Assembly: GCA_035627015.1 (NCBI GenBank)
Contig: DASPMO010000154.1
Coordinates: 3,537 to 67,536, forward strand
From: Thermoanaerobaculia bacterium
GTDB taxonomy: Bacteria > Acidobacteriota > Thermoanaerobaculia > Gp7-AA8
DNA length: 64,000 nt
Direction: 5' to 3'
Both the position numbers and the translations under genes were made by a program. The notes under the pieces are model-generated. The model saw only the letters and a program-made list of their open reading frames with translations, did not search any database and was not told the origin of the DNA. Shown piece by piece: positions 31,393 through 41,722 of the stretch (positions are counted from its first letter, which is position 1; the number at the start of each line of letters is the position of its first letter).

Positions 31393-31599
31393 ACCTTGCG
31401 AGTCGGCCGAAACCCGCAAGGTGACTCGCAAGGTCGCCCGCAAGTTACTCGGTTTCAGTGAGTTATCCCACCGTCTGTAGATCGACTTCTCTCTAACCTA
31501 AGTACCCGCGCCCTCCGGCCTGTCACACCGGAGGGCGCGGGAGCCCCGTCGGCCCCGCCAAAATAAGACGCTCACCAGCCGCCACTTGGCGGCTTTTTT
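31393..31599 (+). ncRNA. candidate structured non-coding RNA or leader (three hairpins ending in an intrinsic terminator)
   Basis: 12-bp stem: ACCTTGCGAGTC (31393-31404) pairs with GACTCGCAAGGT (31423-31434). 13-bp stem: CCGCGCCCTCCGG (31506-31518) pairs with CCGGAGGGCGCGG (31528-31540). Terminator hairpin at 31577-31599. No convincing ORF lies here, and the stretch looks less GC-rich than its flanks. Confidence 0.35.
31577..31599 (+). terminator. rho-independent terminator-like hairpin
   Basis: AGCCGCCA-CT-TGGCGGCT followed directly by TTTTTT (GCCGCCACTTGGCGGCTTTTTTC). Confidence 0.6.
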
Positions 31600-31729
31600 C
31601 GTTTCAGCACACGAAAGCGACGAAGTGCCTCCGTGTCTGGTGTCGGGATGGCGAACGTGTAGCCCCAAGCCGGACTTTCCTGGTTTCGGCTACGCCTGGG
31701 TAGGAAAACCGCCATCCCGTGGCTCTCCT

Positions 31730-34700
31730 ATGGAGATGAGCGACGACGTTCAGATCCGGCTCGTGCACGTGGAGTTTCTCCGTCCCGGGCCTCCGCACAA
31801 CCAGCTTCTCTCGCCGCTGACGCAGTACCTCGCCATTTCCGGTGACAGCGGAGCCGGCGTGGTCACGGTGCCGTACGAGCAGGCGGAGTTCTCGCGCCGC
31901 CTCAAGCAACTCCGGTACGACTCGGGGGATCCCGAGGATCGCCTGGCCATGCTGCATTCGACCGGCGTCGAGATGAGCAGGATCCTCGGCGCGGTGCCCG
32001 GGCTGGCCGGTGCACTCACGATGGATGCGAATCACCAGGGAACTCTGATTCAACTTCGCATCACGCTCTCCGCGTCCGAGCTCGCGATGCTGCCGTTCGA
32101 GCTGGCGAAGGCGCCGGTGTCGGCGACGAACACCGCGGAGAACTGGCTGTCGATCCAGACCCGGCCGCCGGTTTGCGTCACGCGCAACATTCGCACGGTC
32201 TCACCCGAAGGGGTCGTCTGGCCGGATCAGCCGCGCATTCTGTTCATTTCCGGGAATCCCGGTGACGTGCCCTACGAGCAACATCGCAAGGCGCTGCTCA
32301 AGGCGATCGAGCCGTTTCAATATCCCGACGAGGACGATGTCGTCGTGACGGAGGAGGGGCGCGAGCAGGGCGGCAGGCTCCTGACGATTCTCGTCGATCC
32401 GACTCTCGCCCGCGTGCTCCGCGAGTGCAGGGAAAACGAGTACACCCACGTCCACATCCTGACGCACGGCGATCTCAACGAGGCCTCGCCTGACTCGTAC
32501 GGGCTGGTGATGCGCGGCGAGGACGGCTCGCCCGAGGTCGTTTCCGGAGACCAGTTCGCCACCGCGCTCGCCTCGGTCCATCACCGGCCGACGGTGGTGA
32601 CCGTGGCCAGTTGCGACAGCGGCAATGTGAATCAGGTCGCGCAACCCGGCGCGAGCTTCGCGCACGCCCTGCACCAGTCGGGGATTCCGCTCGTCCTCGC
32701 ATCGCAGTTTCCGCTGAGCAAGCCAGGTTCGGTGCCGCTCGCGGCGACGCTGTACGACGGCCTGCTCTGGGGGAAGAACCCGCTCGTGCTCCTGCGGGAG
32801 CTCCGCGCGGAGCTGCATACGGTGTACACATCGAAGTGGCATGACTGGGCCAGCCTCGTGGTGTACGAAGCGTTGCCGCAGGCTCTCAACGAGCAGCTGG
32901 AAAAGCTCCGCTATTTTCAGACCAAACGCGCCATCAACGCCACGCTCGAACGAATCGACCGCGCGGTCAAACGGGCCCTCGAAGAGCGAAGCGTGGCCAG
33001 TCTCGAGAAACTCCACAAAGAGATCGAATCCGCGGTCGGGCGGCTGCCGCTCAAAGGTCCGTACTCGGCCGAATGCATCGGCATCCGCGCGAGCGCGCGC
33101 AAACGGCTCGCGCAGGCGGCCTTCAACACTCCCGAATCCCCGCGCGATGCGTATGACCTGCTCGAACAGGCCTACATCGACTACAAATGCGCGGCGGACT
33201 CGCTGCTGGTCATCAGCGAAGGGCCGGCACAACGCGTGGCCACGCTGCACTGGCTGCTCGTGCAGCTCGAATCGCTCGACATGATCCTCGGCCGCGAAGG
33301 CGACGACCGGCGCTGGACCGCCGCTCATCTCTCTGCCGAGATGTACCGGCATCATCTCGACACCGAGCAACGCGCATGGGCTCACGGCAGCCTGGCCGAG
33401 CTCTTTCTCGTGAAGCTCGGCAAAGCCGGTCTGAACGAGGAAGATCGCGAAAAGCATCACCAGGACGTCCTCCAGCACATTCACGAGCTGGTGAAGCTCT
33501 ATCCGCTGCGCACCGAGTTTCCGGTGAAGTCGACGCGCAGGCAGTTCGAGCGCTATGCCGACTGGTGGGGCTCGCAGCAATTCGAAGATGGGTTGAAAGA
33601 GCGCGGGCTGACCCGCCGCGCGCCGTGGGATGGCCAGCACGGCGTGACGCAGGTGGCGAAAGAGGTCGTGAAGATCATGCAGCGCAACCTCCGTCCTCCC
33701 GTCAAGCCGCCTTCTTCCGGATCTGCCGGCGGCAACGGCGGCGGTGCGCCGGAGCCGCCGCCGAAGCCGAGCGGCGGCAAGCCTGGCGGCGGTGCGACGC
33801 TCTCGCGCCGCGCGCGCACCAAGCCTTTCTTCGACATCACCATGCTGCCGGCGGGGCATGGCGACTCGCTGTGGATCGAGTACGGCCAGAACGAGCGCGA
33901 CGTGCATCGCGTGCTCGTCGACTGCGGAACGCAGCAGACGGCGAGGGAGCTGCTGAAGCGCGTCGCCGCGCTGCCGAAACGCGAGCAGTTTTTCGACCTG
34001 TTCATCCTCTCGCACATCGATTCCGATCACATCGGCGGTGCGCTGCCGTTCTTCAAAGCCGTCCGCGATGGCCTGCGCTTCGGCGACGTCTGGTTCAACG
34101 GCTGGCGCCATCTGTCGGACCGGCTCAGCGCGCGGCAGGGGGAGATGTTCTCGACCGCGATTCAGGATCTCGAGCTGCCGTGGAATGTCTGGATGGATGG
34201 CGGGGCCATCGTCATCGGCAACGGAAAGCTGCCGACGTCCACGCTGCCCGGCGGGATGAAGCTCACGCTGCTCTCGCCGACGCCGAAGCAGTTGCAGAAG
34301 CTCGCACCCGTCTGGACCCGGGAGCTCAAGCGCTACGCTCTCACGCCCGGCGCACGCATGGACTACAGCCAGTTCCTCAAGGGCAAGCCGTCGACCTCGA
34401 CGGACCTCGACGAGCTCGCGGAGACGCCGTTCAGCAGCGACCCGGCCGCGCCGAACGGCTCGAGCATCGCCGTCCTCGCCGAGTACGAAGGCGCCGTCGC
34501 CCTCCTCGGCGCCGATGCGCACGCGCCGGTGCTCACCGAATCGCTCGGCAAGCTGCTCCCGCGCGGCAAAACACGGCTGAAGATCGACGCGTTCAAGGTC
34601 TCCCATCACGCGAGCCAGAACAACGTCAGCAGGGAGCTGGTCTCGATGCTCGATTGCCCCCGCTTCCTCGTGTCGAGCAACGGCGCGCACTTCAACCATC

Positions 34701-34885
34701 CCGACCGCGAGGCCATCGCCCGGATCATCAAGTACCGCAAGATCGGCGATCGCAAGCCCGAGCTGATCTTCAACTACCGCACGCCGCTCAACGACGTCTG
34801 GGAGGGACTGCAGGACCGCTACGGCTTCACGGCCCACTACCCGGCGGAGGAACCGGGACAGGTTGTGAGTTTGCTGCCGGAGTAG
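31730..34885 (+). CDS. CHAT protease - helical region - Gly/Pro linker - metallo-beta-lactamase-fold (ComEC-C-like) hydrolase fusion protein
   Basis: Track ORF 31586..34885 trimmed to ATG 31730, because the upstream part overlaps the terminator hairpin. CHAT dyad: YTHVHILTHGDL ... VVTVASCDSGN. Linker: PPVKPPSSGSAGGNGGGAPEPPPKPSGGKPGGG. MBL motifs: ITMLPAGHGDSLWIEY, VLVDCGT, LFILSHIDSDHIGG, FKVSHHASQNN. Confidence 0.8.
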   Translation: MEMSDDVQIRLVHVEFLRPGPPHNQLLSPLTQYLAISGDSGAGVVTVPYEQAEFSRRLKQLRYDSGDPEDRLAMLHSTGVEMSRILGAVPGLAGALTMDANHQGTLIQLRITLSASELAMLPFELAKAPVSATNTAENWLSIQTRPPVCVTRNIRTVSPEGVVWPDQPRILFISGNPGDVPYEQHRKALLKAIEPFQYPDEDDVVVTEEGREQGGRLLTILVDPTLARVLRECRENEYTHVHILTHGDLNEASPDSYGLVMRGEDGSPEVVSGDQFATALASVHHRPTVVTVASCDSGNVNQVAQPGASFAHALHQSGIPLVLASQFPLSKPGSVPLAATLYDGLLWGKNPLVLLRELRAELHTVYTSKWHDWASLVVYEALPQALNEQLEKLRYFQTKRAINATLERIDRAVKRALEERSVASLEKLHKEIESAVGRLPLKGPYSAECIGIRASARKRLAQAAFNTPESPRDAYDLLEQAYIDYKCAADSLLVISEGPAQRVATLHWLLVQLESLDMILGREGDDRRWTAAHLSAEMYRHHLDTEQRAWAHGSLAELFLVKLGKAGLNEEDREKHHQDVLQHIHELVKLYPLRTEFPVKSTRRQFERYADWWGSQQFEDGLKERGLTRRAPWDGQHGVTQVAKEVVKIMQRNLRPPVKPPSSGSAGGNGGGAPEPPPKPSGGKPGGGATLSRRARTKPFFDITMLPAGHGDSLWIEYGQNERDVHRVLVDCGTQQTARELLKRVAALPKREQFFDLFILSHIDSDHIGGALPFFKAVRDGLRFGDVWFNGWRHLSDRLSARQGEMFSTAIQDLELPWNVWMDGGAIVIGNGKLPTSTLPGGMKLTLLSPTPKQLQKLAPVWTRELKRYALTPGARMDYSQFLKGKPSTSTDLDELAETPFSSDPAAPNGSSIAVLAEYEGAVALLGADAHAPVLTESLGKLLPRGKTRLKIDAFKVSHHASQNNVSRELVSMLDCPRFLVSSNGAHFNHPDREAIARIIKYRKIGDRKPELIFNYRTPLNDVWEGLQDRYGFTAHYPAEEPGQVVSLLPE

Positions 34886-34944: not shown

Positions 34945-35514
34945 ATGAAAAACCTATTCGCGGTGCTCCTGCTCGCCATGGCTCTGTCTGCCGCCGCCGC
35001 GGAGGAACCGAAGAAGCCGGCCGATTTCACGGGGCCGGCGACGATGTGCAACGGCACGTACGCCCTCTGCATCAAGGCGCCGTGCGAGAAGAAGCCGGAC
35101 GCGAATAATCTCTATCCGTGCGGCTGCGTCATCCAGACCGGCTGGAACATGGGACCGAACTCGTGCGACGACCGGCAGAAGAACCTCACCTCGACGTACT
35201 CGAACCTGTTCAACCTCGGCAGCGCCACGGTCAGCTGCCCGGCGTCGACGCAGTGGGCGTGGTGCTACGGCGCGAAGTGCGAGGTCGACCCGCGCGACCC
35301 GACGCGGGCCATCTGCAAGTGCCCGACGAGCACCAAGCCGACCGTGATCCTGGTGAGCCAGGCCATGTGCTCCGACCCGGGCAAGGTCTGCGGGATGCTC
35401 TGGTCGGGAGCGACGCCTGCCGAGAGCAAGTTCGCGAACGAGTATTACTACTGGTGGATGACCACGAACGGGCAACAGTCGAATCTGCCCTCGACGGCGT
35501 GCGCGTCGAACTAG
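34945..35514 (+). CDS. secreted cysteine-rich protein, function unknown
   Basis: Signal peptide: MKNLFAVLLLAMALSAAAA. The mature part has about 16 Cys (CNGTYALCIKAPCEKK...CGCV...CKCP). Confidence 0.65.
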   Translation: MKNLFAVLLLAMALSAAAAEEPKKPADFTGPATMCNGTYALCIKAPCEKKPDANNLYPCGCVIQTGWNMGPNSCDDRQKNLTSTYSNLFNLGSATVSCPASTQWAWCYGAKCEVDPRDPTRAICKCPTSTKPTVILVSQAMCSDPGKVCGMLWSGATPAESKFANEYYYWWMTTNGQQSNLPSTACASN

Positions 35515-35517
35515 CGA

Positions 35518-35873
35518 TTTCAGCGAGTTCGCTGAAATCGCAAGCGATTGCGCTTCGAAGTTAAGAGAACTCGCTGAAAAATCGTGACTGCGCGCTTGCG
35601 ATTTCAGCGAGTTCGCTTAAGTTTCAGCGAACTCGCTGAAATCGCCACTGAATTCGCGGACAAATTCAGCGAACTCGCTGAAAGTACCAGCGTGCATTGG
35701 CCACATTTTCAGCGAGTTCGCTGAAAATGCAGCGCGCCAAGCCTGCGTTTTCAGCGAGTTCGCTGAAAATATGGCGGATCACCGCTGCATTCGCGGCAGT
35801 CAACGTTCCATTTTCAGCAGTTACGCCGAGGTGGGCGGTGGCATCGGTATGATTTTCAGCGGACTCGCTGAAG
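35518..35873. repeat. array of about 9 copies of a 20-bp perfect palindrome TTTCAGCGA(G/A)(T/C)TCGCTGAAA (operator-, iteron- or centromere-like)
   Basis: Full copies start at 35518, 35602 (degenerate 3' end), 35622, 35664, 35707, 35749 and 35854. Right-half or degenerate copies start at 35560 and 35812. Start-to-start spacings are 42, 42, 20, 42, 43, 42, 63 and 42 bp. The last copy abuts the SD (AAGGAGGA) and ATG 35883 of the XRE gene. Confidence 0.85.
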
Positions 35874-35882
35874 GAGGAAGCG

Positions 35883-36245
35883 ATGAAGGTGCGTGAGTTT
35901 GGAGTGCGGCTGACGCAGTTTCGCGAGCGGCAGCACCTGTCGATGACCCAGCTCGCGAACCTCCTCGGCATCGACTACATGCAGATCTCGCGCTACGAGA
36001 AGGGGCAGAGCCTGCCGTCGCTCGAGACCGCGATGCGTCTCGCGAAGGTTCTCCAGGTCTCCCTCGACGAGCTCACCGGCAGCGAGCCTCCGCCGGGCCC
36101 GCCCGCGTTCACCAACACCCGCCTCTTCGAGCGCATGCGCCAGCTCGACCAGCTTCCCGCCCACCGACAGGAGCTCGCCCTGCGTGTCCTCGATACAGTC
36201 ATCTCGGGGCACGAGCTCGAAAGCCTGGCGGGACGGCTTCGATGA
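35883..36245 (+). CDS. XRE-family helix-turn-helix transcriptional regulator
   Basis: LTQFRERQHLSMTQLANLLGIDYMQISRYEKGQSLPSLETAMRLAKVLQVSLDEL is a typical HTH_3/XRE domain. A strong SD is present. The stop overlaps the next start (ATGA at 36242-36245). Confidence 0.85.
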   Translation: MKVREFGVRLTQFRERQHLSMTQLANLLGIDYMQISRYEKGQSLPSLETAMRLAKVLQVSLDELTGSEPPPGPPAFTNTRLFERMRQLDQLPAHRQELALRVLDTVISGHELESLAGRLR

Positions 36246-38284
36246 TCCACGTGAAGCGGCCCCCCGCGTCTCCGCACCTCGCCGCGGTACTTGAGCGTGC
36301 GGCGGCGCGGACCAATCAGGAATTCAAGAAGCACCGTGGGGCGCAGACGAGATTCGAGTTCTCGCGGAAGGAGTGGAGTGAGGCTGCGCTCCCTCTGTAC
36401 ACGATGTTCCACGGCAAGTGCGCGTATTGCGAGACGCCATTCGACAGGTGGGCGGGTGGAAACGTCGATCATTTCCGGCCGAAGCTGGGGGCGTGCGACC
36501 TCGAGGGCACGATCGATCCGAATCACTACTACTGGCTCGCCTACGATTGGTCGAATCTCTACATCGGTTGCGGCGAATGTGAGCTGAACAAGAAAACGTT
36601 CTTTCCCGTAGAAGGAAAGCGCGCACCCATTGATGGCTCGATCCGCGGTGAGCAGCCACTTCTGATCGACCCGTGCGGTGAGGACCCGAGGAAGCACCTT
36701 CGGTTCCTGAGTGACGGGTACGTCCGACACACTTCGATTCGTGGAAATGTGACGATCAAGCTGCTGGGCCTGAACCGCATGTCGCTGGTCGAGAAACGGA
36801 TGGCTGCGATCGAAGAAGCCGAGCTCAGGCTCCGGAACGGTGCCACCCCGGTAGAGCTGACCGCGCCGCACGTTCCGTATCTCGCCGCGATCATGGACAC
36901 CCTCCCCGTACGACACGCCGCGCGCCGGGTGGCGATGTCCGTGCAGGAACCGCTGGCAAAGAAACAGACGGCAGTCTCGAAAAAGCTGGCCGCCACCGCC
37001 ACCGCCTTCCGCACCGGCGGCTTCCTCAAACGCATCGTCCTCACCAACTTCCGCAGCATCCGGAGTCTCTCGCTGAACATCACTCCCTCGCAGGGGGAGG
37101 AGCAGGCGGGGTGGCTGATGCTCCTCGGGGAAAACGCGGCAGGCAAGTCGTCGATCCTGCAGGCCGTCGCTCTCGCGCTGGCTGGCGACGAGGGACTCGA
37201 GGGGTTCGAGCAGGAATCGTTCGACGCGATGATCCGCAACGGCACGAGCGCGGCGACGGTGATCGTCGAAACGTCGGCCGATCCGCCGCGCATCGAGCTG
37301 CAATTTCAGCGCGGCAAGCGCCCGCACTTCGTGCACGGCGGCGACGGATATCCGGGCCTGGTTCTCGGCTACGGCGCGACGCGCATCGCGGACGATAAAG
37401 CGAAGGTCAGCGGCAGCACGAGCGCGCGCCGCATCCTCAACCTCTTCGACCCGCGGGTGCGGCTGACGCCGGCCGAGGCGTGGCTGCTCGAGCTGTCGAA
37501 GAGCTCCAAGGCATTCAACGACGCGGCGAAGTCGCTCAAATCGCTGCTGCGGATCACCAACGTCAGGACGCCGCTCACCGTCCGCAACCGGCGCATCCGC
37601 ATCGACCACGGCAATGGTCCGGTCCTCGTCGAGCAGCTGAGCGCCGGGTATCACGCGATGCTCGGCCTCGGGATCGACATCATGCAGGCAGCGCCGGCGC
37701 AGATGACGGACAAACGCTACGCCTCCGGGATCGTCATCCTCGACGAGATCGACGCGCACCTGCATCCGCGCTGGAAGATGAACGTGGTCGGGTTGCTGCG
37801 CGACGCCTTTCCGATGATTCAGTTCATCGTGAGCACGCACGAGCCGCTCTGCCTGCGCGGCACGAAGCGCAAAGAAGTGGTGTTGATGCGGACGAACGAG
37901 AAGCGCGCCGTCGAAGCGGTGACCGACCTGCCGCCGCACGAGACCATGCGCGTCGACCAGTTGCTGACGTCGCCGCTGTTCGGCCTCCACACCACCCTCG
38001 ATCCCGAGGTGGAGAAGGAGTTTCGCGACTACTACGCGCTGCTGGCGAAGCCGACCCGGACGGCGAAGGACCGAAGGATCATCGCGGCGAAAAAAGAGCA
38101 GCTCTCGCGTCACGGAATCCTCGGTTACACGCGCCGCGATCAGCTCATCTACGAATGGATCGACGACTTTCTCGCACAGGAGCCGCTGCTCGACAGGGAA
38201 GGGCGTGCGAAATTGAAGGAGGAGACGAAGCAGAAGGTGCTGTCCCTCTGGCGGCGCGCCGCGTCCGCGGGGAGCCCGGCATGA
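36242..38284 (+). CDS. fusion of N-terminal HNH-type nuclease domain with ABC/SMC-like (AAA_15/21-type) ATPase (PtuA-like)
   Basis: HNH: GKCAYCETPF...NVDHFRPK...WSNLYIGCGECELNK. ATPase: IVLTNFRSIRSLSL, Walker A LMLLGENAAGKSSIL, Walker B GIVILDEIDAHLHPRW, and IQFIVSTHEP. Confidence 0.8.
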   Translation: MIHVKRPPASPHLAAVLERAAARTNQEFKKHRGAQTRFEFSRKEWSEAALPLYTMFHGKCAYCETPFDRWAGGNVDHFRPKLGACDLEGTIDPNHYYWLAYDWSNLYIGCGECELNKKTFFPVEGKRAPIDGSIRGEQPLLIDPCGEDPRKHLRFLSDGYVRHTSIRGNVTIKLLGLNRMSLVEKRMAAIEEAELRLRNGATPVELTAPHVPYLAAIMDTLPVRHAARRVAMSVQEPLAKKQTAVSKKLAATATAFRTGGFLKRIVLTNFRSIRSLSLNITPSQGEEQAGWLMLLGENAAGKSSILQAVALALAGDEGLEGFEQESFDAMIRNGTSAATVIVETSADPPRIELQFQRGKRPHFVHGGDGYPGLVLGYGATRIADDKAKVSGSTSARRILNLFDPRVRLTPAEAWLLELSKSSKAFNDAAKSLKSLLRITNVRTPLTVRNRRIRIDHGNGPVLVEQLSAGYHAMLGLGIDIMQAAPAQMTDKRYASGIVILDEIDAHLHPRWKMNVVGLLRDAFPMIQFIVSTHEPLCLRGTKRKEVVLMRTNEKRAVEAVTDLPPHETMRVDQLLTSPLFGLHTTLDPEVEKEFRDYYALLAKPTRTAKDRRIIAAKKEQLSRHGILGYTRRDQLIYEWIDDFLAQEPLLDREGRAKLKEETKQKVLSLWRRAASAGSPA

Positions 38285-39099
38285 TTCGCGTGAAGCGTGG
38301 TGACGCGCCGGCGTGCCTGCTCGATGACGGTGCCGCGGGACGCGAGCGCAGGAAAGCCGAGGAGCTCCGGAAGAAGCATCCGAAGAAGAGCTTCCCGTTC
38401 AAAGTGTACGCGTCCGAGGAGGTCAAGCTCGCGCTGGAGCGGCTGTTCCGCGGCAAATGCGCGTACTGCGAGACGCGGTATGCCGCGTCACAGCCGATGG
38501 ACGTGGAGCACTGGCGTCCGAAGTCGCAGTATCCGTGGGCCGCGTCGGACTGGGACAACCTCCTGCCGTCGTGCATCGACTGCAACCGGCAGCGGTATCA
38601 GTTGCTCGTCGACGAGAGGAAGAAAGTGCGCGCCGGGAAGGGCACGTTGTTTCCACTCGCCAAAGGATCGAAGCGGGCCACCTCGCGCGCCGCGATGGCG
38701 CGGGAAGTGCCGCTGCTCCTGCATCCCGCCAATGACGATCCCGACGAGCACCTGCGGTACACCGAGGAGGCGGTCGTGCGCGCGCGGCGGAACAGCGAAA
38801 AAGCGCCCGAGTCCATCCGCGTCTATGCGCTGAACCGCTCCGCCCTGGTCGACGAGCGGCTGCAACTGCTGCTCCTTCTCCGCCACCGGATGCACACCAT
38901 CGCAGTGCTGATCGATCTGCTCGACCGCTCGACCGGCAGGACAGCGGAACTGATCGAGGATCTGCTCATCCACGAAATGACGGAGCTGCACGCCTTCGCC
39001 CATCCGGCGCGGCCCTATTCGGCGATGGCGCGGCATTTCATCAAAGAGTTCGCGAAGACGATCGAGCACTCGCGCCTTACTAGCGATAGCATCAGATAA
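38281..39099 (+). CDS. stand-alone HNH endonuclease (PtuB/TIGR02646-like), paralogous to the N-terminus of the preceding protein
   Basis: Track ORF 37480..39099 trimmed to ATG 38281 (ATGA overlap). MIRVKRGDAPACL parallels MIHVKRPPASPHL of the previous gene. HNH: GKCAYCETRY...DVEHWRPKS...WDNLLPSCIDCNRQ. LLLHPANDDPDEHLRY parallels LLIDPCGEDPRKHLRF. Confidence 0.8.
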   Translation: MIRVKRGDAPACLLDDGAAGRERRKAEELRKKHPKKSFPFKVYASEEVKLALERLFRGKCAYCETRYAASQPMDVEHWRPKSQYPWAASDWDNLLPSCIDCNRQRYQLLVDERKKVRAGKGTLFPLAKGSKRATSRAAMAREVPLLLHPANDDPDEHLRYTEEAVVRARRNSEKAPESIRVYALNRSALVDERLQLLLLLRHRMHTIAVLIDLLDRSTGRTAELIEDLLIHEMTELHAFAHPARPYSAMARHFIKEFAKTIEHSRLTSDSIR

Positions 39100-39111
39100 G
39101 GAGCCAACCCG

Positions 39112-39342
39112 ATGCCGACCTCCACCATCACGAGCAAGGGACAAACGACCGTACCGAAGGAAGTGCGGGACGCGCTCGACATCGGCCCGGGCGACAAAAT
39201 TACATGGGAAGTGAACGGCGGCCGCGTTTCGGTCGCGACGGAGCGCCCCGCGTTCTGGCGATGGGAAGGCTTCATCAAGCACGGCCCCACCGACGTGGTG
39301 AAAGCCGTTCACGAAGCGCGGAAGCGAAGAGGGCGTATCTGA
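39112..39342 (+). CDS. vapB: AbrB/SpoVT-type antitoxin (VapB-like)
   Basis: MPTSTITSKGQTTVPKEVRDALDIGPGDKITWEV is the canonical SpoVT/AbrB swapped-hairpin motif. SD-like aaggag lies upstream. Confidence 0.8.
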   Translation: MPTSTITSKGQTTVPKEVRDALDIGPGDKITWEVNGGRVSVATERPAFWRWEGFIKHGPTDVVKAVHEARKRRGRI

Positions 39343-39343
39343 C

Positions 39344-39490
39344 GTGCAACGCGTCGTCGTCGATGCGAACGTCTTTCTCTCCACGGCGATCGTCGCCGTC
39401 GCCGCGAGCAAACGATACGACGCCATCGCCACCTTCGACCAGAAGCTCGGCAAACGCGCGAAAGACCTCGGCGTCGCCACATACTGGTAA
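39344..39490 (+). pseudogene. internally deleted PIN-domain (VapC-like) toxin remnant
   Basis: My translation from GTG 39344: VQRVVVDANVFLSTAIVAVAASKRYDAIATFDQKLGKRAKDLGVATYW*. It keeps the PIN N-terminal strand (VVDANV) and the C-terminal TFD..L motif. It is only 48 aa long, against about 130 aa for an intact PIN. Confidence 0.55.
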
Positions 39491-39496
39491 CTGCGC

Positions 39497-41722
39497 ATGG
39501 CTGTGCTCCCCACCACCCAAGAGCGATCTCGCCGCGAGCTCCTGCTCGCCCTGAGCTTCGCGCTCTGGGGGCTCTGCATCGCCATCGCCATGAGCTCCGT
39601 GCTGCGCAAGCCGGCGCCGCCCGATCAGGCCATGAGTGTGGCCACGCTCGCCAACATCGATGCCAAAGGCTCCATGCGGTGGATGTTCTGTCTCCTCCTC
39701 TTCCCGGTGCTCGTGCCGGCGGTCTTGCGGCCGGTGGCGCGGCGTTTGGCGGAGGGGGAGGCGTGGGCGCGGAACGTGGTGGTCGCAGCGCCGCTGGTCA
39801 CGTTGTGGCTGATCAGCGTGCAGCAGCGCGTGCCGTGGGCGATCGTGCCGTGCGGGATCGTCGTGCTGGCATGCCTGCTCTTGCGCAAGCGGGAGTTGCA
39901 GTTCACGCGGCGCGACTTCGTGCTCGTGCCGACGTTCCTGGCGGCGCTCCTCGCGCTGATCGACATCGGGACGACGCTCGCGGCGCACCAGCACGTCCTC
40001 CTCGCGGCCATGCTCGTGCTGGCGCTGCGCATCGGCGTCACGTTCATCCGCTCTCCGCTGCCGCCCGCGTTTGCGTTCGTCCTCGCGCCGCTGGGGCTGG
40101 TCCTGCAGACCGGGTTCTTCGCGCGGGACCAGCGCTACTTCGGGTGGCATGCGCTGGCGGTCGTCGTGGTCACGCCGTTCGTGCTGCGCCTCTTCCTGCG
40201 GCGGGAGCGGCTGGCCATGCGGCTCCTGACGCTGGTCGCGTTTCCGCTCGCGCTCTACGCATACGGCAACGCCACCAGCGCCTCCACGGCCTTCGGAAAA
40301 TCGCGCGTCAACTACTTCGAGGACGGGCACGCGCTCGTCCCCGCGTCGGAGTATCTGCGCGGCGAGCTCCCCTATCGCGACATCCTGCCGGGCCACGGAC
40401 TGATCGAGGACGGGCTGTTCGACTACTTCGTCTTCCGGACCGGCGAGGTCACGGTCGGGCGGACGCTGAAGGCGCGCGAGATCTTCGGACAGCTCAACAG
40501 CGTGGCGCTGTACGCGCTCGCCTTCGCGGCCACCGGCTCGGCGGAGGCGGCGTTCCTGACCGTCCTGTTGAGCATGATGACCGGCACCTTCACGCCGACC
40601 ATCCGGACGCTCGTCCCGGTCACGGCCCTCGCGTGCATGGTGGCGGGAGTGCGCACGCGCGGGCGCCACTGGTTCGCCTGGGCCGGCCTGGCCACGGTCC
40701 TCAGCGGCGCGATGAGTCTCGACTACGCGTTCTACACCTGCGGCGCGCTGGCGGTGGCGATGCTCCTGGCGGGACTCCGGCGCACGCTCGTGCCCGCGGC
40801 CCTCGGGATCGCCGCCGGGGTCGTGCCGCTGTTCGGGACCTTCGCCGCGCTGGGGATCCTCGACGACTTCCTCCGCGGCACGTTCGTCGAGACCCCCGCC
40901 GCGTCGACCGCGTACCGCCTCGGCTTCTTCCGCGCGCCGGCGGCGATGCAGCAGCATCCCTCCTTCCCCGAGGTGCTGACGGTGCTGCTCCAGCCGGACG
41001 TGTACCAGAACCTGGTCTGGCTGATCATCGTCGTGAGCCTCGGCGCGGCGCTGACGCGCCGCTGGCCGCGCACGGTCCAGCCGCTGCTCGTGCTCGCGTC
41101 GTGGGTGGCGCTGTCGGGGATCTCCTTCGCCTACCGCTTCAACCATTACTTCGGGATGATCGCCGTCGTGCTGCTGGCCGGGTGGATCTTCCGCCTGGTG
41201 CGGAAGCGGAGCCCGTGGGCGATCGCCGCGATCGCCGCGGCCATCATCCTGGCGCGGCCGTCGATGCACGCGGCGGTCGTGGGAGTGAACCGGGCCGCGC
41301 GCGGCACGCCGCCCGCCGACTGGGTGGAGATCCGCGACATCCCCCGCGCGCGCGGCGCGCTCTGGCACGTGCGCGACGCCACGGCCATCGCCGGCGTGCA
41401 GAAGTACCTCTCGCTCACCCTCGCACCGCACGAGACGTTCTTCAATTTCTCGGACACGGCCATCCTCCACTACGTGACGCGGCGGGACTGGCCCATCCGC
41501 GAATACGAGATGGCCTACCTCCAGTCCGAGGAGAAGCAGCGCGAGGTCATCCGCGTCATCGAATCCAACCCGCACATCCGCGCGCTGCTCATCCGCGAAG
41601 GAGATTTCTCCATCGACTTCATCCCCAACTCCCGGCGGGCGCCCCTCCTCCATCAGTACCTGCTCGACCATTTCGAGCCCGACTTCGAGGAGGGGCACGT
41701 CACGTTCTGGCGGCGGAAGTGA
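39497..41722 (+). CDS. polytopic integral membrane protein (GT-C-like glycosyltransferase possible; function unknown)
   Basis: 741-aa ORF with more than 12 hydrophobic helices across the first 560 aa or so, then a soluble C-terminal domain of about 170 aa. Two overlapping Arg/Pro-rich alternative-frame ORFs were rejected. Confidence 0.7.
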   Translation: MAVLPTTQERSRRELLLALSFALWGLCIAIAMSSVLRKPAPPDQAMSVATLANIDAKGSMRWMFCLLLFPVLVPAVLRPVARRLAEGEAWARNVVVAAPLVTLWLISVQQRVPWAIVPCGIVVLACLLLRKRELQFTRRDFVLVPTFLAALLALIDIGTTLAAHQHVLLAAMLVLALRIGVTFIRSPLPPAFAFVLAPLGLVLQTGFFARDQRYFGWHALAVVVVTPFVLRLFLRRERLAMRLLTLVAFPLALYAYGNATSASTAFGKSRVNYFEDGHALVPASEYLRGELPYRDILPGHGLIEDGLFDYFVFRTGEVTVGRTLKAREIFGQLNSVALYALAFAATGSAEAAFLTVLLSMMTGTFTPTIRTLVPVTALACMVAGVRTRGRHWFAWAGLATVLSGAMSLDYAFYTCGALAVAMLLAGLRRTLVPAALGIAAGVVPLFGTFAALGILDDFLRGTFVETPAASTAYRLGFFRAPAAMQQHPSFPEVLTVLLQPDVYQNLVWLIIVVSLGAALTRRWPRTVQPLLVLASWVALSGISFAYRFNHYFGMIAVVLLAGWIFRLVRKRSPWAIAAIAAAIILARPSMHAAVVGVNRAARGTPPADWVEIRDIPRARGALWHVRDATAIAGVQKYLSLTLAPHETFFNFSDTAILHYVTRRDWPIREYEMAYLQSEEKQREVIRVIESNPHIRALLIREGDFSIDFIPNSRRAPLLHQYLLDHFEPDFEEGHVTFWRRK

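Follow-up and report, generated by a model that had tools for sequence, protein, structure and literature searches.

A phased palindrome array in front of a conserved XRE gene of Thermoanaerobaculia, proposed as a multi-operator platform of the adjacent repressor, with a Septu cassette as a later insertion

What is the role of nine similar 20-bp sites that lie in register directly in front of a small XRE-family gene with a Septu defence cassette behind it? The window, by which we mean the whole 64,000-nucleotide stretch of DNA analysed, comes from a contig of a soil-metagenome assembly. The lineage is uncultured, and the evidence is comparative throughout. The first-pass annotation of this DNA suggested, among other possibilities, that the array could be a large cooperative operator giving switch-like repression of a toxic defence operon. 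We retain the operator part as the most likely reading, on account of the position of the last site at the ribosome binding site (RBS) in 15/15 loci, the independence of the half-sites, and the co-variation of recognition helix and operator. The defence part is given up, since the module is older than the Septu genes and has unrelated neighbours elsewhere. We put the probability at roughly 0.65 that the array is a binding platform of the adjacent 120-aa XRE repressor, the two forming a conserved module in which the Septu cassette is a later insertion. The comparisons below show how the array is built, that the module is conserved, that the cassette was inserted, that the palindromes are under purifying selection and that recognition helix and operator base co-vary; from these patterns we infer binding, oligomerisation, repression and co-transcription.

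As shown in Table 1, positions 35518-35873 contain nine sites of the form TTTCAGCGA-RY-TCGCTGAAA, set on a 21-bp lattice with start-to-start spacings of 42, 42, 20, 42, 43, 42, 63 and 42 bp. A motif count in the window confirmed the nine copies, starts and spacings first reported for this array, and the last copy does touch the Shine-Dalgarno sequence and start of the XRE gene, as had been claimed. When TTCAGCGARYTCGCTGAA was searched with up to two mismatches, 8 matches were found in the 64-kb window, all inside the array, and none in 100 shuffles; palindrome copies elsewhere in the window were not detected. The sites had been called perfect 20-bp palindromes, which needs correction: each is built as a 9+9 inverted repeat around a non-palindromic centre, GT or AC, and the 9-bp arms are perfect in five of the window copies. 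The G+C content of the array region is 53-54% vs 64-69% in the surroundings. The array is identical in DNA contigs of four soil runs, and other contigs of the same sample hold similar palindromes. Consensus scanning gave neither a sigma-70-like promoter nor a terminator-like site, and the locus was absent from the RNA runs searched. No description of these arrays was found in the literature searched. A CHAT-MBL protein is also encoded upstream of the array.

Table 1. Features of the array and its surroundings, in positions of the window. L164 is the locus of the closest relative read.
Feature	Position	Strand	Remarks
Array, nine strong or partly degenerate 20-bp sites TTT(C/A)AGC(G/A)A-RY-T(C/T)GCT(G/T)AAA	35518..35873	.	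Proposed XRE multi-operator platform
189-aa Cys-rich secreted-looking protein, family unknown	34945..35514	+	Upstream of array; not conserved beside the module in relatives
Copy 1	35518..35537	.	0 mismatches, centre GT; 4 bp past stop codon of upstream gene
Copy 2	35560..35579	.	Right half only in window; left half degenerate here, intact in L164
Copy 3	35602..35621	.	Centre GT; abuts copy 4 directly, spacing 20 bp
Copy 4	35622..35641	.	0 mismatches, centre AC
Copy 5	35664..35683	.	Centre AC
Copy 6	35707..35726	.	0 mismatches, centre GT
Copy 7	35749..35768	.	0 mismatches, centre GT
Copy 8, degenerate	35812..35831	.	Left half only; L164 copy almost base-for-base equal
Copy 9, promoter/RBS-proximal putative operator	35854..35873	.	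Right arm enters Shine-Dalgarno; end inside AAGGAGG
GGAGG Shine-Dalgarno of XRE gene	35873..35877	+	
XRE-family repressor gene, 120 aa	35883..36245	+	ATG at 35883; Pfam HTH_3
Inserted cassette, ~3.3 kb	36242..39520 (end approximate)	+	Missing from L164
HNH-ATPase fusion PtuBA	36242-38284	+	PADLOC long PtuA models, 2e-183
PtuB, HNH protein	38281-39099	+	
VapB/MazE-like small antitoxin	39112-39342	+	Followed by PIN remnant
741-aa membrane protein	39497..41722	+	91% identical to gene overlapping XRE stop codon in L164

The segments between the copies had been described as not conserved, but they are not unrelated sequence. In 81 unit pairs from 21 arrays, the spacer 20-mer at +21 matches 8.2 of the 18 consensus positions vs about 4.3 at other offsets, and the 22-bp spacer consensus is ttgcCAGCgAg-CtCGCTtGcat. 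The spacers are thus worn, degenerate copies of the palindrome; the true period is therefore 21 bp, which makes two helical turns, and every strong site is followed by a weak one. Of the 154 spacings in the 23 arrays compared, 123 are multiples of 21 to the base, and with a tolerance of 1 bp the number rises to 151. These arrays have a median span of 315 bp, the window array covering 356 bp. A CRISPR array, dismissed already by the first-pass annotation, was likewise rejected: the repeats have 20 bp (vs 23-47), the spacers are degenerate repeat copies and there are no cas genes.

The regular 42-bp unit, which makes 14 codons, allows the array to be read as a decayed or cryptic coding repeat, since both strands read F-S-E-(L/F)-A-E. 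Gene callers indeed place products of 67 to 153 residues in arrays of this family, and four in-frame units of the array at locus L082 resemble an amphipathic 14-residue repeat. However, that frame shows no shortage of stop codons (they make up 2-6% of spacer codons whichever of the six frames is read), they occur in every frame of the window array, and 28/154 spacings in the array family are off by 1 bp. Such slips are compatible with helical phasing and would break a reading frame. We hold a coding origin to be extremely improbable.

The logo of 143 copies shows how the site is constrained. A4, G5 and C6 and, in the other arm, G13, C14 and T15 are invariant, while T2/A17 and A8/T11 are near-invariant. 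Two positions are more tolerant, C3 with 18% A and G7 with 17% A, as are their mirror positions, which gives the half-site as TTT(C/A)AGC(G/A)A. In these 9+2+9 sites the half-site centres are 11 bp apart, about one helical turn, with invariant AGC...GCT cores. Of the central dinucleotides, 109 are AC or GT and just 23 are AT or GC, and both orientations are mixed along the arrays.

The two arms of a site do not change together. At positions 3/16 there are 35 one-sided combinations (20 A·G and 15 C·T) vs 9 complementary A·T ones, and at positions 7/12 there are 42 (25 A·C and 17 G·T) vs 4 or 5; at every mirror pair, Watson-Crick pairing is about what independent columns would give. The half-sites therefore vary independently and without compensation, inside a set of tolerated bases, as expected of two half-sites read by identical protein subunits and not of a hairpin. 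This bears directly on the possibility that the array acts as RNA, in the form of a stacked-hairpin 5' leader that would set how stable the XRE mRNA is or how well it is translated. A single unit is able to fold into an 8-bp stem with a 4-nt loop, and the Shine-Dalgarno sequence lies next to the last of them. Yet the stem is without compensatory changes, one-sided changes give A-C and G-T combinations at similar frequency in both senses, and the AC/GT orientation of the centre is random along arrays. Moreover, the hairpin is followed by AAA and not by a U-tract, no terminator-like sites were found, and some arrays lie in convergent gaps with no defined transcript. An RNA-level function is, on these grounds, very improbable.

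Selection on the palindromes can be followed from window to L164, where identity is 88% in the palindromes as against 71% in the spacers (p = 6e-5), a difference that shows purifying selection on the palindromes. The promoter-proximal 100 bp are 88% identical overall. Copy 8, degenerate as it is, is nearly the same in both loci and is therefore probably part of the promoter-proximal control region.

The array accompanies the XRE gene in relatives. At least 181 homologues of the XRE protein were found, and the best 120 of them have 64-88% identity and come nearly all from soil metagenomes. An array of the same kind is present at 15/15 loci of XRE orthologues (64-88% identity, Thermoanaerobaculia/Acidobacteriota). 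These loci are the window, L054, L073, L117/L124, L122, L127, L128, L135, L162, L163, L164, L166, L167 and L168; they were taken from the window, three genome-collection matches and the DNA around eleven XRE homologues. In all 15 the last copy stops 8-10 bp short of the start codon, against the RBS. At the eleven homologue loci, the 250-480 bp before the XRE gene are gene-free and filled with related palindromes on the same lattice, the last of which merges with GGAG. An 18-mer scan of genomes, with one genome per species, found at least six arrays in at least four Thermoanaerobaculia/Acidobacteriota metagenome-assembled genomes (MAGs); three of the six listed are directly upstream of an XRE orthologue with 72-77% identity, and the other listed matches of the scan are mostly single chance ones in unrelated phyla. 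An exact look-up of the L054 XRE product gave no match.

The genes flanking the module on both sides differ among the XRE loci. Upstream neighbours include a Tricorn protease, a PAS protein, ankyrin proteins, an RND pump, a LexA-like S24 protein and a kinase, and downstream neighbours include cytochrome c, DHOR, VIT, VWA and DUF2306 genes and a convergent CHAT-TPR gene. In L164, a second array upstream of the LexA-like gene was looked for and not found. Downstream genes vary by locus, and a consistent linkage of the XRE module to immune operons was not found. An array thus stands upstream of the XRE gene at 15/15 loci, while Septu is present only in the window. From the comparison of these loci, array and XRE gene are a conserved chromosomal unit of Thermoanaerobaculia, and the array belongs to the XRE gene, not to Septu.

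How the Septu genes came to lie behind this unit can be read from L164, whose XRE protein is 86-88% identical to that of the window. At that locus the XRE stop codon and the beginning of the next gene, the orthologue of the 741-aa membrane-protein gene of the window, overlap. Because the junction between XRE and membrane-protein genes is direct in L164, window positions 36242 to ~39520 represent an insertion of ~3.3 kb, with PtuBA, PtuB, the antitoxin and the PIN remnant as its content. Before the insertion, as judged from L164, the membrane-protein gene lay directly behind the XRE gene and overlapped it. The insertion point is within the last XRE codons, the window protein ending in ...GRLR and the L164 protein in ...GRLRRS, and the ATG of PtuBA overlaps the XRE stop codon. 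On the other side, homology with L164 starts exactly at copy 1, so the module is bounded by two breakpoints. Septu is absent from L164, the closest relative read. Array and XRE gene accordingly form a module older than the Septu cassette, which is a recent insertion. In the window the cassette is probably co-transcribed with the XRE gene, as a passenger. With the module older than Septu and placed beside unrelated genes elsewhere, the array was not built to control Septu.

The XRE protein falls into three parts. Its AlphaFold model (mean pLDDT 87) shows a five-helix helix-turn-helix (HTH) domain at residues 3-65 with the recognition helix at 32-39, a Pro-rich linker at 66-78 and a C-terminal helical hairpin at 79-119, which presumably drives oligomerisation. 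The NCBIfam RstR model (NF041951) matches residues 5-113 with 72.2 bits, below its cut-off of 80 bits, and in tblastn the RstR of CTXphi is 29% identical over 96% of the protein. Residues 6-104 fit the capH model of PADLOC (E = 7e-10). Sequence and fold searches of the PDB gave matches to the HTH domain only (C proteins, P22 C2, SinR, DdrO and CapH), and plasmid matches to the XRE protein are below 45% identity. The combination of HTH, linker and helical oligomerisation domain, as in RstR, SinR and CapH, suggests that XRE dimers may pair into tetramers or longer assemblies.

Does this protein read the palindromes? Residues 31-34 form the N-cap (31) and first turn of the modelled recognition helix. 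They are D-Y-M-Q in 119 of the best 120 homologues (of at least 181), and P0117 alone has H-Y-T-L. For the bases at half-site position 3, copies were picked with a pattern that left positions 3 and 16 free. In the array of P0117 (L166), T stands at position 3 in 13/18 half-sites vs 10/168 in twelve D-type loci (Fisher p = 2e-10). The array of P0084, which has D31H only (L168), is intermediate with T in 4/16 (p = 0.02). D31H/M33T/Q34L is thus paired with TTTTAGCGA, a C-to-T change at position 3, and the D-type helix with TTTCAGCGA; the change is symmetric, both half-sites matching the change in the recognition helix. Resting on one strongly changed and one intermediate lineage, which are perhaps mutually related, this co-variation of recognition helix and operator base is the strongest available evidence that the XRE protein would read the palindromes.

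The XRE gene is not present at every array of this build. At least three such orphan arrays, which lack it, are found at other intergenic loci of one MAG (L051, L082 and L083, on three contigs). A metagenome scan for one perfect copy with a perfect neighbouring half-site gave 12 loci, with an XRE gene at one and none nearby at 11/12. Neighbours of orphan arrays are ordinary chromosomal genes, for xanthine dehydrogenase, plsY/metC, Ku, an epimerase, a PNPOx-like protein, a TIR-NB-ARC protein and a kinase-caspase protein. Most arrays take up nearly the whole intergenic gap, leaving 5-45 bp to the genes on either side. At least four orphan loci lie between convergent genes (L051/L137, L082, L131 and L134); arrays there cannot be promoter operators, and autoregulation is therefore not the whole story. 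Two pairs of orphan loci in different genomes are orthologous: L051~L137, next to xanthine dehydrogenase, and L083~L130, next to plsY. The latter two differ by one 42-bp unit, their flanks and palindromes being conserved and their spacers diverged. Viral contigs contained no arrays, just single chance matches. Orphan half-sites are D-type, with C at position 3 in 87%, and it is therefore plausible that the orphan arrays are further binding platforms of the XRE protein.

The orphan arrays open the way to an architectural or centromere-like role, in which the XRE protein would coat several ~315-bp arrays per genome as insulators, roadblocks or sites of pairing or segregation, the copy at its own gene serving for feedback. 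Several features of the orphan arrays would fit such a role: in size (median span 315 bp) and lattice they equal the XRE-linked ones, they fill intergenic regions including 3'-3' gaps, they are kept at the orthologous loci named above, and they number at least three in one MAG. Precedents exist in the omega/parS heptad arrays, which double as operators (PMC9499535), and in stoperators (PMC9283540). But no ParA/ParM-type partner or replication gene stands beside any array, and in most genomes among the matches listed the XRE-linked array is the only one. We consider this role unlikely as the primary explanation. The related proposal of a centromere- or iteron-like site of a former mobile element finds no footing in the gene contexts: a plasmid iteron or partition centromere was rejected for want of adjacent rep or par (ParA/ParM/TubZ) genes, the contexts being chromosomal, with housekeeping or defence genes.

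Dispersal of the arrays also calls to mind selfish REP/BIME-like repeats, moved by a REP-associated tyrosine transposase or by recombination and not bound by XRE. The elements are palindromic and strictly intergenic, often lie a few bp past stop codons and occur at several unrelated loci. In L073 a RAYT-like gene (NCBIfam, 80.2 bits vs a cut-off of 80) separates the array from the upstream gene, a direct duplication of 350 bp surrounds the orphan array of L051, and the one-unit difference between L130 and L083 would be natural for such repeats. Nevertheless, compensatory covariation of the arms is absent, copy number is low, and isolated or paired copies do not exceed chance, either in the window (64 kb) or in the ~150 kb read from related loci. 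The transposase of L073 has its own, different repeats on both sides and no homologue at other array loci. Selfish spread also gives no reason for the register with the RBS of one gene in 15/15 loci or for the co-variation with the helix. The first-pass annotation had taken dispersal of the 20-mer at unrelated loci as the mark of a generic REP; XRE-less arrays do exist in related genomes, yet as whole arrays at low copy and not as a generic REP. We regard a REP/BIME origin as quite improbable.

We therefore return to the array as an operator platform of the XRE repressor and propose how it may work. Each 20-bp site would be bound by one helix-turn-helix dimer, which would read the two half-sites ~11 bp apart. 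XRE dimers would occupy the strong sites, which recur at intervals of 42 bp or four helical turns; as the degenerate sites lie midway between them, all sites would face the same side of the DNA. The C-terminal hairpin may then recruit further dimers to the weak sites in a cooperative manner, giving a nucleoprotein complex of up to 15-17 dimers over ~315-356 bp. As the last site runs into the RBS of XRE, occupancy should shut off its own promoter, and the extra sites would sharpen and buffer this negative autoregulation. Septu expression would be capped by the self-limited XRE promoter, with an array that did not evolve for it. At orphan loci, arrays may block read-through between genes in the manner of stoperators (PMC9283540), or, as with the omega/parS heptad arrays (PMC9499535), may be places of assembly.

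The locus would offer a natural repressor-operator pair with an unusually large, strictly phased array of ~8 strong and ~8 weak sites. Operators before autoregulated XRE genes are ordinary. What is unusual is the number of sites and their strict phasing, an array size that stays constant throughout a bacterial class, and the extra arrays away from promoters. With the apparent natural change in specificity (D31H/M33T/Q34L with C-to-T at operator position 3), the pair would make a direct and cheap test case for cooperative filament-type repression, and repressor and operator variants are a possible source of orthogonal repressor parts. A toxic Septu and antitoxin cassette exactly behind a presumably self-limited housekeeping repressor gene suggests a route to safe, low-level expression of defence genes. 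The orphan arrays raise the question of architectural chromosome roles for small XRE proteins. One may go further and imagine a lineage-wide chromatin-like system, in which XRE would polymerise on ~315-bp arrays (15-17 phased sites) at several intergenic places per genome, as insulator, roadblock or pairing site, with its own array for feedback; it would be one case of a wider, undescribed class of 21-22-bp phased arrays with small DNA-binding proteins. This extension is speculative, and we think it rather unlikely.

Several known systems resemble the array and its protein in part. REP/BIME clusters with RAYT share with the array family a palindromic, intergenic and clustered build and the variation in unit number, whereas the present arrays are without arm covariation, low in copy, without single copies beyond chance in the window and related loci, in fixed partnership with XRE and without a consistent transposase.

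In cluster A mycobacteriophages a single repressor has one early-promoter operator and many intergenic sites, the stoperators, that stop elongating RNA polymerase (PMC9283540), and they serve as a working analogy for orphan arrays in 3' gaps. They are single asymmetric sites bound by monomers and scattered on a phage genome, in contrast to the phased palindrome arrays on a chromosome here.

The parS heptad arrays of pSM19035, bound by omega (ParB), consist of at least seven contiguous short sites in mixed orientation (PMC9499535). A minimum number of contiguous sites is required in that system. The omega/parS arrays lie at several loci, including upstream of omega's own gene, and act both as operator and as site of higher-order assembly. 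Omega, however, is a ribbon-helix-helix protein that binds 7-bp repeats in a plasmid system with ParA, and there is no ParA near the arrays described here.

CapH, of the CapH-CapP regulators of CBASS and other defence operons (bioRxiv 10.1101/2022.04.27.489752), has an HTH and a C-terminal oligomerisation domain in common with the XRE protein. Like CapH, the XRE gene of the window lies directly upstream of a defence operon. Unlike CapH, it is without CapP, no CapP-type metallopeptidase being found within 10 kb of the XRE gene (20-kb gene table) or at the other loci, and its module predates the defence insertion and adjoins non-defence genes elsewhere. To our knowledge, CapH promoters have one or few sites and no 350-bp array.

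RstR of CTXphi, with its ig-2 operators, is the closest characterised full-length relative, and both proteins are small XRE proteins made of an HTH and a C-terminal domain. Kimsey and Waldor are said to have described in 2004 that RstR represses a neighbouring gene and its own, its tetramers binding several large operators cooperatively. RstR has three operators, whereas the lattice of 21 bp here has ~8 strong sites and as many weak ones. Unlike the phage RstR, and with viral contigs free of arrays, the XRE gene described here is a conserved chromosomal gene of Acidobacteriota that is accompanied by orphan arrays.

The Septu cassette, with its VapB-like antitoxin and PIN-remnant genes, is an insertion within the final codons of the XRE gene, as judged by comparing its junctions with L164, the array locus of a close relative without Septu (see table). 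At the left junction an ATGA stop/start overlap was re-formed, and the XRE protein has a new and shorter C-terminus, ...GRLR in the window compared with ...GRLRRS in L164. The insertion also replaced the N-terminus of the 741-aa membrane protein, which begins MAVLPTTQE-RSRRE in the window and M-RSRRE in L164. On the other side, synteny with L164 is lost exactly at the first palindrome. In that position the window carries CHAT-MBL and a 189-aa gene, in contrast to the LexA-like HTH-S24 gene of L164. The array+XRE module is thus bounded on each side by a gene-exchange point within a defence-rich region.

CHAT, caspase, TIR or NB-ARC genes lie no more than a few kb from many arrays, XRE-linked and orphan alike, and this proximity may reflect the mere commonness of such genes in these genomes. 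A DUF6036-type nucleotidyltransferase gene stands beside two unrelated orphan arrays (L083 and L139); the one in L139 directly precedes a ParD/RelE-like toxin-antitoxin pair.

Coordinates of features at the array loci
Feature	Locus	Position
Septu cassette	window	36242-39520
Region compared with cassette	L164	3330-3420
Loss of synteny, upstream edge	window	35515-35518
Loss of synteny, upstream edge	L164	about 2630
CHAT/caspase/TIR/NB-ARC genes	window	31586-34885
CHAT/caspase/TIR/NB-ARC genes	L137	2-2470
CHAT/caspase/TIR/NB-ARC genes	L163	6541-9147
CHAT/caspase/TIR/NB-ARC genes	L124	10701-12381
CHAT/caspase/TIR/NB-ARC genes	L138	3367-7797
CHAT/caspase/TIR/NB-ARC genes	L128	6856-10329
DUF6036-type gene	L083	381-1259
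DUF6036-type gene	L139	3625-4323
Gene call in array	L164	2811-3014
Gene calls in, or beginning in, array	L168	2769-2972; 3001-3462
Gene call in array	L162	5384-5791
Direct duplication with enclosed array	L051	1043-2095
Orphan array	L051	1399-1735
Orphan array beside plsY	L083	45-445
Orphan array beside plsY	L130	10815-11250
Transposase-like gene	L073	2162-3121

The arrays avoid centres that are fully palindromic (GAATTC, GAGCTC): 109 copies carry AC or GT as the central dinucleotide, and only 23 carry AT or GC; taken singly, the central columns had A/G and C/T each at about equal frequency. Public gene calls place products of 67 to 153 residues within arrays, or the XRE start inside the array, which gives a protein of 153 aa rather than about 122. 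These calls look like artefacts of the palindrome's FSE(L/F)AE reading.

The orthologous orphan arrays beside plsY differ in length by exactly one 42-bp unit, with much greater divergence in the spacers than in the flanks or palindromes, which suggests gain and loss of units and rapid turnover within arrays. In L051 the 3' end of a xanthine-dehydrogenase-family gene is present twice, as direct copies of 350 bp with 93.5% identity, and the orphan array sits between them. The duplication may be a trace of the array's insertion, or else an assembly artefact. L137, the orthologous metagenome locus, matches L051 in spacing pattern.

Two further short contigs with similar palindromes (records 3 and 4) were seen in run X1, the sample from which the window was assembled. 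Their depths (9.1 and 12.8) are near that of the window contig (10.8), and they may represent orphan arrays from the window's own genome.

At L073, the stretch that separates the upstream gene from the XRE-linked array contains a gene resembling REP-associated tyrosine transposases (NCBIfam NF047646, 80.2 bits; cut-off 80). Other short repeats flank this gene, two copies of GGGGTSAAAGC...TTCTTCGCA on the left and two of CTGGCCCCTGACAGC on the right.
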